Shown here: in pieces, positions 8,658 to 52,368 of the stretch | Numbering within the stretch: position 1 is the stretch's first letter | Layout: each line of letters opens with the position of its first letter | Virus record (IMG/VR): IMGVR_UViG_3300028422_000873 | Origin: a virus | Lineage: Duplodnaviria; Heunggongvirae; Uroviricota; Caudoviricetes | DNA length: 64,000 bases | Strand: one strand, 5' to 3' | The notes under the pieces: model-generated | Seen by the model: the letters and a program-made list of their open reading frames with translations, nothing else | Told to the model about the DNA's origin: nothing | Database searches by the model: none | Position numbers and translations under genes: made by a program

Positions 8658-9404
8658 CTACTCTCCTGAAGAACCAAATCCTCCGGTGCCGCGATCTGTA
8701 TCCTCAGATACCTCTTCAACTTCTGCCATATAATAATTAGATGAATAAGGATACATGATTAGTTGTGCTAGTTTTTGGCCTTTTTTAATATGAATTTTGG
8801 CAGGTGTTTTTGCAGTACATGGTAAACCAGTCACTTTATCTCTAATACTATGAAAATGACTATCTATTAAACAGGTACATATGACATGTGGAATACCACG
8901 ATATGATTCATCAATAATACCAGCATACACTAGAAGTCCTTTACTACCTAATCCAGATTTAGATGTTATTTGTGCATACGTGCCTTCTGGTAGTTTCATT
9001 TTTATATTTAACGGATGTTTTGTCACATAACCAGCATGAATAGTAACATCTTCTGTAGCATACAAATCAAAACCGGCATCGGTTTTATGAGCTTTCATGG
9101 GTAATTTACCACCCTCTAAAATCTCAACTTCAATCCTATATTTATCATCAAATTTTTTCTGTTGTTCATCTTTAATTTTTTCTTGTTTATAAACCACATA
9201 TTCTGTAGGTGCTTCCTCTAAAGAAGCTAATTGCATAATCTGATTTCTAATAAAATCCGGGTTGTCTTTAAGATCAGCAGAAGATACTAGATCTTTATAT
9301 TCTTCTGCTAATTTATCTAATTCTTGTCGCGCGGTATCTGCATCATCTGCGTATTTATTAAAAATCTCATACTTCTTTTTTTCAAACTCATTAAATCTAT
9401 CCAT
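8658..9404 (-). CDS. dut: trimeric dUTPase with N-terminal helical extension
   Basis: AGFDL, KSGLG, GIIDESYRG, RGTGGFGSSG motifs. Confidence 0.95.
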   Translation of the reverse strand: MDRFNEFEKKKYEIFNKYADDADTARQELDKLAEEYKDLVSSADLKDNPDFIRNQIMQLASLEEAPTEYVVYKQEKIKDEQQKKFDDKYRIEVEILEGGKLPMKAHKTDAGFDLYATEDVTIHAGYVTKHPLNIKMKLPEGTYAQITSKSGLGSKGLLVYAGIIDESYRGIPHVICTCLIDSHFHSIRDKVTGLPCTAKTPAKIHIKKGQKLAQLIMYPYSSNYYMAEVEEVSEDTDRGTGGFGSSGE

Positions 9405-9650: not shown

Positions 9651-9899
9651 TTAGTGAGTTAACTTAGTTTCAAAGTTGATTAGAATTTTGAATATTCTAT
9701 ATAAAGATAATTCGAAAAAGGTATCTGCCTCAAAGAACGAAATAGTATTATGATTACAAGGTATGTTGGAGTCATCTATAAATTCTATAGTTGTATCATT
9801 TATTTTACGAATTACTTTATATTTTTTATAAGGTGTTATATTGAATTCAATTTTATATGGAGAGACTATAAAGTCTCCCACGTCAATTGAGAATCTCAT
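9651..9899 (-). CDS. hypothetical protein
   Basis: 82 aa ORF overlapping the peptidase stop. Confidence 0.6.
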   Translation of the reverse strand: MRFSIDVGDFIVSPYKIEFNITPYKKYKVIRKINDTTIEFIDDSNIPCNHNTISFFEADTFFELSLYRIFKILINFETKLTH

Positions 9900-10353
9900 C
9901 TTCTAATTCATCTAAGCAAACGTTAATATCGTCATCGCTTGGACCAGTCGGTAGATATTCATGCTTTGCTCTATTATCCCAGCGAACTCTATGATTTGAA
10001 TCTGTTCTAGAATCAACATGCGTAAATGTATCATATCTTCCAAGACCATTAAAGGATTCGCATGCATCTGCAACTTCACTCTGTGTCATTCCTGATACTG
10101 TAATGTCCGTAGCTGTTCCTTCGCTGTGATATGTATCTGAATCTTCTTTAAATTCTTTACACTTTTCACAAATGTAAGCAGATTCTATTATTATTGGACA
10201 ATCTAAATCATCTCGTAATTTTTGTAGTTTTCTTACATGATCCATGTCGATCTTTACTTCTTTACAGTGAGGACAGGAGCACTCAAATTCTGATTGCCAG
10301 AAGTTTTTAGTTAGTTGTCTTTTTTCACCCTTTTTAAATACTTGTAAATCCAT
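9883..10353 (-). CDS. peptidase M15A family (D-Ala-D-Ala carboxypeptidase-like Zn peptidase; possible endolysin)
   Basis: NFWQSEFECSC, YHSEGTATDI (His/Asp ligands), FTHVDSR (His ligand). Confidence 0.85.
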   Translation of the reverse strand: MDLQVFKKGEKRQLTKNFWQSEFECSCPHCKEVKIDMDHVRKLQKLRDDLDCPIIIESAYICEKCKEFKEDSDTYHSEGTATDITVSGMTQSEVADACESFNGLGRYDTFTHVDSRTDSNHRVRWDNRAKHEYLPTGPSDDDINVCLDELEDEILN

Positions 10354-10436
10354 GATTACTCCATGTAGAGTACAATACGCATGTACTTAAATATATTATA
10401 TCATAGTAAAAGTTTAATAGTAAGTAGAATATAGAT

Positions 10437-11123
10437 ATGGACGGTCACAAATCATATTTACAAAGTATAGGAAACATCCCTCTTTTAACTTTAGAAGAGG
10501 AAATTAAATTGACTAAAAAGATAGCAAAGGGCGATCAAGATGCTAAAAATCGTCTAATAGAGGCAAATCTTAGACTTGTTGTTTCTATAGCAAAACGTTA
10601 TAAAAACAAGGGTTTAGATCTTTTAGATTTAATTCAAGAAGGTAATCTTGGTCTGATTAAGGCTGCAGATAAATTCGAGTATCAGCGTGGATATAAGTTC
10701 TCCACATACGCTACATGGTGGATTCGTCAGGGAATTACACGGGCTATCACCGATAAAGGGAAAACAATAAGACTTCCAGCACATATGGTAGAGTCAATAT
10801 ATAAAGTTATTCAAACAGTTAAACAACTTACTAAAACATTAAATCATGAACCAAGTGATGCTGAAATAGCAAAAGAAATGAAATTATCAATTGATAAGAT
10901 AAAGGAAATTAAGCAGGTATCACAACAAGTGATATCTTTAGAGACTAAAGTTAATGATGAAAATGATGATATGTTATTGAATTTAATAAAAGATGATAAA
11001 ACATTAGCACCAGAAGATGCTGTAATTCGTAAATCAATAAATAACAATATAAGCGACATTGTTTCCTCTCTGTCACCTAGAGAAGAAAAGGTGTTAAGAA
11101 TGGGATTTGGATTACTTCCGTAG
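10437..11123 (+). CDS. RpoD/SigA-like sigma-70 factor, C-terminally truncated (no region 4.2 HTH)
   Basis: Region 1.2 [11 protein letters not shown], 2.1 [16 protein letters not shown], 2.2 [10 protein letters not shown], 2.3-2.4 [11 protein letters not shown], 3.0 IRLPAHMVE; stops at [17 protein letters not shown]. Confidence 0.95.
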
Positions 11124-11456
11124 CATAAGCCAAAAACAATAAGCCCAGCAAGAAATACTTAATACAATATCTATAATTGATATAACAGTCCCCATATCTT
11201 GTTTCTGTGGTTTTTTTGCTTCTTTTTCAATGATTTGAATCAATAGATCTTTTAATTCAGAGTTTTTTGTTTCTAGTTCTTTTTCTTTCTTCTTAGTTTC
11301 TTTTAATTCTTTTTTTACTTCTTTGGTTTCTTCTACAACCTTTTCTTTCTCAATCTCTACTTCTTTTTTAATTTTAGCGATTTCTTCTTCAATAGAAGAG
11401 ATTATTTTTTCTTCATCTTCTATTAGAGGTTGTTCAGTGTTATCTGTATTTTCCAT
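11112..11456 (-). CDS. acidic coiled-coil protein with C-terminal TM helix
   Basis: E/K-rich coiled coil then [22 protein letters not shown]. Confidence 0.7.
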
Positions 11457-12905: not shown

Positions 12906-13490
12906 ATGGATAAAAAATGTATTGAGTGTGGCGAATTATTTAATGCCTATCGAAAGAATCATAATTTTTGTAGTAAGAAGTGTTCTAATAATAATTGGAA
13001 AAGAAGCAATTTAGAGCATGTACGTGAGAAAGAGAAGAAATATCGAGAAATACATAAAGAAAAACAAGCAGTAAATACAGCTAGATGGCGTGAAAATAAT
13101 AAAGAACGCATCAAAATAAATAAACATCAGTATTATCTAAAGAATAAGAAGCGCTTCTTAGAACGTCGTAAAAATAATTTACAAGAGCGATTGAAACATT
13201 CATTGAGAAGTAGATTACATAGTGCAATTAAATATAATACTCATAAAGCTGGTTCTGCAGTTAAAGACTTAGGATGTACATTAGAGGAACTTAGAATACA
13301 TCTAGAATCTAAATGGCAAGAGGGTATGAACTGGGATAATTATGGTTTACGCGGTTGGCATATAGATCATATTAAACCATTAGATGATTTTGATTTAGAA
13401 AAACGAGAAGAACTATTAAAAGCTTGTCATTATACTAATTTACAACCATTATGGGCGAAGGATAACCTAGCTAAAAACAATAAAGTATAA
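12906..13490 (+). CDS. free-standing HNH homing endonuclease
   Basis: N-terminal CIEC...FCSKKC zinc motif; WHIDHIKP...HYTNLQPLWAKDN HNH core. Confidence 0.9.
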   Translation: MDKKCIECGELFNAYRKNHNFCSKKCSNNNWKRSNLEHVREKEKKYREIHKEKQAVNTARWRENNKERIKINKHQYYLKNKKRFLERRKNNLQERLKHSLRSRLHSAIKYNTHKAGSAVKDLGCTLEELRIHLESKWQEGMNWDNYGLRGWHIDHIKPLDDFDLEKREELLKACHYTNLQPLWAKDNLAKNNKV

Positions 13491-52309: not shown

Positions 52310-52368
52310 ATTATACCAAATTTCAACTTATCATTTATTTAACTATGATCTTTATTTATCGGTATAAT
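52310..52368. promoter_or_regulatory. divergent -10 promoter pair at the late/early boundary
   Basis: TGGTATAAT on minus (52310-52318) and CGGTATAAT on plus (52360-52368). Confidence 0.7.

Follow-up and report, generated by a model that had tools for sequence, protein, structure and literature searches.

A phage-encoded RpoD-like sigma factor that ends before region 4.2, a putative accessory factor for -10 and extended -10 promoters

The window analysed here (a stretch of 64,000 nucleotides) corresponds to positions 64001-128000 of a virus record that is complete at 166,618 bp (166.6 kb; an uncultured phage) and has direct terminal repeats. Coordinates prefixed by G000, which denotes the whole genome of this phage, lie outside the window. 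The locus under study comprises a truncated sigma gene, its domains and the immediately adjacent features:

10437-11123 (+): truncated RpoD/SigA-like sigma gene, 228 aa, with regions 1.2, 2, 3 and helix 4.1, ending in a TAG stop
10449-10538 (+): region 1.2, aa 5-34 (Pfam PF00140, Sigma70_r1_2; 42.6 bits)
10554-10763 (+): region 2, aa 40-109 (Pfam PF04542, Sigma70_r2; 81.7 bits against a cut-off of 24)
10791-11021 (+): region 3, aa 119-195 (Pfam PF04539, Sigma70_r3; 65.8 bits)
11064-11114 (+): first helix of region 4 (4.1), the only part of that region kept; LP and the stop come next
10425-10430 (+): -10-like hexamer TAGAAT, preceded by AAG and separated by 6 nt from the ATG at 10437; candidate leaderless promoter
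10395-10403 (-): divergent extended -10 site TGATATAAT serving the M15 peptidase gene (9883-10353); it shares an 83-nt intergenic region with the sigma promoter
11112-11456 (-): lineage-specific ORF in convergent orientation, 114 aa, rich in Lys/Glu and with a membrane helix at its C-terminus; 12-nt overlap with the 3' end of the sigma gene

The first-pass annotation had described regions 1.2, 2 and 3 as intact, including the His and Glu of region 3.0, and the Pfam matches and the alignment both agree. Region 2 retains in the alignment the core-binding DLIQEGN motif and the -10-reading, DNA-melting segment, and region 3.0 reads RLPAHMVE, with both residues that read the TG of extended -10 elements (His and Glu) present; the region 3.2 linker is divergent. 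Region 1.1 (PF03979) was not found in the protein, and the SigA alignment begins at region 1.2. The closest proteins in a search of 5.8 billion are full-length SigA/RpoD factors of Clostridia and other Firmicutes (57% identity), and the PHROG matches (phrog_351, phrog_21612 and phrog_36098) are each annotated as 'RNA polymerase sigma factor'. The best structural (PDB) matches of an AlphaFold model (pLDDT 72) are SigA and SigS chains of RNAP complexes. With its regions 1.2 and 3 and with primary sigmas as its nearest relatives, the phage protein is, judged from its sequence, a primary-like (group 1/2) sigma; the presence of sigma3 sets it apart from the region-2-only architecture of the T4 gp55 type. 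Its GC3 (22%) is in keeping with the phage genome (mean 31%, SD 9.5).

Region 4 is considered a standard part of primary-type sigmas, in which it reads the -35 element, anchors the factor at the beta-flap, serves as the target of activators and anti-sigmas and aids initial RNA synthesis. Compared with full-length Firmicutes SigA, the phage protein ends two residues past the RFGL motif (...RMGFGL followed by LP) and lacks ~45 C-terminal residues together with the helix-turn-helix (HTH) of region 4.2. The Pfam Sigma70_r4 model (PF04545) gives 12.1 bits, below its cut-off of 24.1, with only positions 3-17 of its 50 aligned. No region 4.2 was detected elsewhere in the 166,618-bp genome, either with PF04545 in any frame (the top match, E 0.057, belongs to an unrelated protein) or with an HMM derived from 119 SigA C-termini; the weak matches in these searches were confined to two unrelated adjacent ORFs. 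None was found in the complete relatives G001 and G013. Read-through or frameshifting at the sigma stop was considered and rejected, as 15 unrelated codons and a TAA follow the TAG and none of the three downstream frames contains sigma-like sequence. The earlier observation that the ORF ends just after 4.1 with no HTH downstream can thus be extended to the entire genome.

The ORF map is in agreement with the previously noted antiparallel arrangement of the sigma gene, which runs opposite to both flanking genes, and with its overlap with the convergent gene; the latter has no homolog in G001, G013, G007 or G010. Inside one phage clade the sigma gene is found in two alternative slots. The first (G001 and 14 fragments) is directly upstream of two same-strand genes, which encode a virion protein (phrog_1004) and a protein with a Nudix domain, and the second (the present genome and G013) is between a D10-like helicase and a dUTPase, with the gene inverted in the present genome. 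In the nearest relative by helicase (57% identity) the helicase-dUTPase gap is 126 nt and holds no sigma gene. Among the eight complete clade genomes compared (i.e. those sharing a cysteine-rich HTH protein, see below), three carry the gene (G001, G013 and the present one) and five do not (G006, G007, G009, G010 and G014). This patchy presence, together with the two slots, indicates that the sigma gene is accessory and has moved. Related HNH endonuclease genes are located near it in both slots (12906-13490 (+) in the window; G013:37164-37709; L011:4107-4670; L013:4898-5452), and these endonucleases might have helped the gene to change slots. A link between sigma presence and low GC proved inconsistent, since the sigma-minus G009 and G014 are AT-rich too. 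The dUTPase of the window (8658-9404, -) is a 248-aa protein with an N-terminal extension of ~100 residues lacking in the 142-aa L003 ortholog.

The truncation is shared by a family of phage proteins. Of 80 sigma loci returned by a scan of IMG/VR, 15 specify proteins 229-232 aa in length that run from region 1.2 to a terminal ...KFG(L/I)xD, with no region 4.2 found within 3 kb. Among the 120 protein clusters listed in a second search, seeded with a family representative, at least 117 (uncultured phages, 213-246 aa) start at region 1.2, end in [KR]x[KR]FG[LI]xD and contain Pfam r1.2, r2 and r3; neither a Pfam r4 match nor a RERIRQ-type motif was seen in these. The complete relatives G001 and G013 share the same start and end residue with the present sigma. 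Homologs in related phages, which the first-pass annotation had proposed to inspect for a common truncation point, therefore do have it, and no full-length copies were found in relatives. In fact, no full-length intermediate was seen in a library of 1.84 billion representatives, and the candidates for full-length close relatives that score above bacterial RpoD came down to the family representative itself and to chimeric assemblies with a duplicated sigma2. Such assembly chimeras (P0241, P0242, P0244, P0245, P0247, P0250 and P0254) have duplicated sigma2 or sigma4 and inflated profile scores. No family member was detected among the cultured/GenBank phages searched, the best matches there (at most 55% identity) being full-length bacterial-type rpoD. 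In the tree, the query, G013 and other truncated proteins are on one side of a branch with SH-aLRT of 93-96, and forcing the query onto Firmicutes SigA costs 29.8 lnL and is rejected (p-AU 0.004). This phylogeny supports a single origin of the truncated sigmas, with the caveat that the query (~1.0 substitutions per site) and G013 are on long branches. No phage sigma without region 4 was found described in the searched literature; judged from the searchable literature, the truncated family is large and undescribed.

In 8 out of the 15 family loci a ~70-aa protein with a C-x5-9-C-x2-C-P-F-x3-C motif is encoded convergently and immediately downstream of the truncated sigma (e.g. L010:3785-4006 (-), L005:3795-4067 (-), L016, L024, L025 and others). 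It has no Pfam or PHROG match, and its cysteine spacing recalls the loop of an Fe-S cluster.

Family pairs with unsaturated dS yield dN/dS values of 0.06-0.13, the purifying selection (dN/dS below 1) that had been put forward as a check. The query itself has a saturated dS against every relative, with dN near 0.47-0.57. Regional conservation, measured as the top-residue frequency across the family, is distributed as follows:

regions 2.3-2.4: 0.95
regions 2.1-2.2: 0.85
region 3.0: 0.83
helix 4.1: 0.83
region 1.2: 0.79
region 3.1: 0.67
region 3.2: 0.58

Within RLPAHMVE, six positions (R, L, P, H, V and E) do not vary across the family. The query agrees with the consensus of the family at 73 of the 96 columns that are near-invariant, as compared with 11 of 61 variable columns, and has therefore diverged under the family's own constraints. 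Given the saturation of dS and the long branch, recent relaxed selection in the query lineage is conceivable. These observations bear directly on the view that the gene of the present phage is a host rpoD that was captured and is now decaying, or an artefact of the assembly. Its variable slot, its strand opposite to that of the neighbours, its 3' end overlapping another ORF, its long branch and its C-terminal end GFGLLP, whose last two residues deviate from the family's KFGL.D, would all suit a remnant. On the other hand, a frame of 228 codons is open in DNA of 32% GC, its start and stop match those of at least 117 relatives, the divergence is concentrated in family-variable columns, the leaderless promoter (see below) is conserved and in G013 the gene is found in this helicase-dUTPase slot as well. 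We regard this view as largely refuted and its residual probability as very small. The recent pseudogene that the first-pass annotation had kept as an alternative, or an assembly break, is excluded by the shared truncation point and end residue, the dN/dS of 0.06-0.13 and the lack of full-length relatives or intermediates, along with the near-invariance of the -10/TG-reading residues and of helix 4.1. From the shared stop and the strong selection we predict that the sigma is a working, naturally shortened factor, not a broken gene.

The same conservation profile helps to assess whether the protein could act as a decoy or competitor, which would occupy the host core RNAP and block -35-dependent host transcription and need not drive phage promoters at all. 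The core-binding region 2.1-2.2 is intact, -35 elements would be unreadable by the truncated sigma, the mini-sigmas described below can serve the phage promoters, and a patchy occurrence is what an optional host-shutoff accessory would display. However, the -10/TG-reading and melting residues, useless to a decoy, are the most conserved part of the family, and their near-invariance argues against a pure core-binding decoy. Moreover, a holoenzyme of this kind would still be active at -10 / extended -10 promoters (PMC3173786). Overall, we consider a decoy decidedly unlikely.

The sigma gene has no Shine-Dalgarno sequence upstream of its ATG, and neither a canonical -35/-10 promoter nor a terminator was found for it. 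The leaderless promoter originally ascribed to it (TAGAAT, 6 nt and ATG) has the layout described, and the arrangement G-TA(T/G)AA(T/C)-N6-ATG is kept in 13 of the 14 family genes checked (with a spacer of 7 nt in one). Genome-wide, a 6-nt spacer is over-represented (found at 9 of 74 upstream hexamers, P 2e-6), and the hexamer-N6-start layout is significantly enriched in G000, G001, G007 and G010. As a matter of sequence anatomy, the predicted leaderless promoter of the sigma gene is well supported. The TATAAT form of this layout (TATAAT, 6 nt and start codon) is present at nine genes of the phage, with examples in the window at 1154, 1995, 16522 and 52366.

On the basis of a rough ORF map with 291 genes, which leaves 6.7% of the genome as intergenic DNA, we counted 60 out of 350 TATAAT sites and 15 out of 32 TGnTATAAT sites as intergenic. 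The 45 TATAAT sites located at most 200 nt upstream of same-strand starts are enriched in G/A at -1 and -2, none of the positions from -45 to -4 is informative, and no -35-like signal was detected upstream of them; an intergenic promoter class T(G/A)(G/A)TATAAT without a -35 signal exists in the genome. The word GGTATAAT occurs in 13 upstream regions versus 0.5 expected, and the second dominant upstream word, AACCGATTCGA, in 10; the AACCGATTCGA words may be promoters of the FliA-like mini-sigma introduced below. The promoters named at first pass (at 52310, 48345 and 43290) could be verified as TGG/TGA/GGG-TATAAT sites upstream of minus-strand genes. One of them marks the slot that the sigma gene occupies in most relatives:

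52310-52318 (-): TGGTATAAT site, 22 nt upstream of virion-protein gene c1

The virion-module slot of the present genome contains this site instead of the sigma gene. In the sigma-minus G007 and G010, TGnTATAAT is intergenic in 9 of 13 and 7 of 7 sites, respectively, and leaderless starts are present too. It follows that this promoter class either is older than the truncated sigma or does not depend on it, and that host SigA or the clade-wide mini-sigmas can serve it. The original notion of a -10-only sigma matched to the TATAAT promoters of this genome is therefore sustained with respect to the existence of a TATAAT class without a -35 element but not with respect to specificity, considering G007 and G010, the presence of the sigma in 3 of 8 genomes and the mini-sigmas.

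No multisubunit RNAP genes were detected in the phage genome, which points to the use of the host core enzyme. The other transcription genes encode two further sigma-like proteins and the cysteine-rich HTH protein (Cys-HTH):

G000:158175-158546 (-): FliA-like region-2-only mini-sigma, ~125 aa, with a TAG-TATAAT site 19 nt upstream
G000:20272-20652 (+): second region-2-only mini-sigma, ~125 aa
G000:46066-46488 (-): Cys-HTH, ~115 aa (other example, L087:1504-1854)

Both mini-sigmas could be readers of -10-only promoters. The second mini-sigma and Cys-HTH are present in 5 out of 5 genomes compared, and the FliA-like mini-sigma in 4 out of 5. Cys-HTH combines a sigma-type HTH (PPSDKEIAHMNNVSVETVK) with invariant Cys15, Cys27, Cys55, Cys67, His61 and His89. 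Its family (226 clusters, 60-90% identity, many with a precomputed PF04545 match) is more conserved than the truncated sigma, and the protein may be a zinc-binding transcription factor that perhaps partners the mini-sigmas.

The existence of Cys-HTH raises the question of a two-piece sigma, in which the truncated protein would work only together with a separately encoded protein, docked on helix 4.1 and the beta-flap in place of sigma4. As a possible flap-side partner, Cys-HTH is the candidate for this role and may serve all three region-4-less sigmas. Helix 4.1 is conserved as highly (0.83) as the core-binding region, which suggests a retained binding partner; Cys-HTH, with its four invariant Cys and the PF04545 matches of many members, is found in all three sigma-plus complete genomes; efficient initial transcription needs sigma4 (PMC7948647); and natural split sigmas are known, such as T4 gp55/gp33, SPO1 gp33/34, SigO-RsoA and Tn916 Sig7-8 (10.64898/2026.10.01.756105). 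On the other hand, Cys-HTH is a core gene of the clade, also present in five complete genomes without the truncated sigma, and therefore not specific to sigma carriers. Its gene is unlinked to the sigma gene, neither slot has a conserved HTH neighbour, and no -35-like signal precedes the TATAAT sites. A profile comparison (hhalign, probability 64%) aligns its HTH to SigA region 3.1, not to region 4; its AlphaFold model is poor (pLDDT 62), a fold search with VIA gave no meaningful match (Z at most 4.3), and a PDB profile search with the protein returned nothing relevant. On balance, we find a two-piece sigma unlikely, if worth keeping in view. A broader version, in which the clade-wide zinc-binding HTH protein would be a shared and detachable sigma4-like subunit that docks on helix 4.1 and serves both mini-sigmas too, appears quite unlikely; if true, three -10 readers would share one flap-/DNA-binding module on the host RNA polymerase.

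The explanation that we favour, with a confidence slightly above even, is that of a functional accessory phage sigma, descended from a SigA/RpoD-type factor through the loss of region 1.1 and the region 4.2 HTH, which would act on -10 / extended -10 promoters with the host core RNAP. Sigma2 and sigma3 would bind the host core RNA polymerase, proposed as the target because no phage-encoded polymerase was detected. Regions 2.3-2.4 would recognise and melt TATAAT and region 3.0 would read the upstream G/TG, directing the enzyme to the phage T(G/A)(G/A)TATAAT promoters without a -35 element. Lacking region 4.2, such an enzyme would be unable to use -35-dependent host promoters and would be out of reach of activators and anti-sigmas that target this region, and helix 4.1 would probably still lie at the beta-flap / RNA-exit channel. 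The sigma gene itself would be driven from its leaderless promoter, which is conserved and likewise of the -10-only type. We infer core binding and promoter specificity, and with them the timing and benefit of the truncated sigma. Precedents include the T. aquaticus sigmaA 1-390, which lacks region 4.2 and is active on -10 promoters (PMC3173786), and the independence of extended -10 promoters from sigma4, which is exploited by Thermus phage P23-45 (PMC3950348). A holoenzyme without sigma4 is poor in de novo initiation and pauses at RNAs of 3-7 nt (PMC7948647), and a sigma4-less factor may therefore need help, which draws attention to the conserved helix 4.1 or to a partner protein.

A selected natural family ending exactly before the region 4.2 HTH would show that phages run the host polymerase in vivo with a truncated sigma of a kind so far studied only as laboratory constructs. 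It would offer a defined system for the action of helix 4.1 alone and for initiation without sigma4, and raises the further question of why some clade members add a truncated sigma to a programme that has several sigmas already. Within the collection searched, no cultured phage has this sigma, which is therefore currently absent from experimental work.

Among known systems, the phage sigma is most readily compared with the primary sigmas of Firmicutes (SigA of B. subtilis, S. aureus and C. difficile) and with group 2 factors (RpoS), with which it shares 50-57% identity over regions 1.2-4.1 and all -10-reading, TG-reading and core-binding motifs. Unlike these, it is phage-encoded, has no region 1.1 or region 4.2 HTH and has a diverged region 3.2. 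Deletions of E. coli sigma70 without region 4.2, reportedly described by Kumar et al. in 1993, are said to form holoenzymes active at -10 / extended -10 promoters. The T. aquaticus sigmaA 1-390 has almost the same end point as the phage sigma, and its holoenzyme is active at the same type of promoters (PMC3173786). These engineered sigma70/sigmaA truncations are, however, laboratory constructs that retain region 1.1, whereas the phage sigma represents a natural selected gene family; enzymes with sigma4 deleted have initiation defects (PMC7948647).

The T4 system (gp55, gp33 and the gp45 clamp) provides another parallel, i.e. a phage sigma without a -35-reading domain that uses -10-only promoters and the host core RNAP (an activity that we infer for the present sigma). 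In contrast to the near-complete primary sigma described here, gp55 is region-2-like but highly diverged and lacks sigma3, and the link to the clamp and gp33 belongs, as far as shown, to the T4 system only. In architecture, the phage's own region-2-only mini-sigmas are of the gp55 type. The two-subunit sigmas B. subtilis SigO-RsoA, Tn916 Sig7-Sig8 and SPO1 gp33/gp34 (10.64898/2026.10.01.756105) are similar in that one polypeptide lacks a region. Their genes, however, are adjacent and both are required, whereas the present sigma has no conserved linked partner and its candidate partner, Cys-HTH, also occurs without it. Finally, Thermus phage P23-45 also favours its extended -10 promoters by removing sigma4 from play (PMC3950348); in that case gp39 displaces the sigma4 of the host, whereas here the phage would supply a sigma without sigma4.
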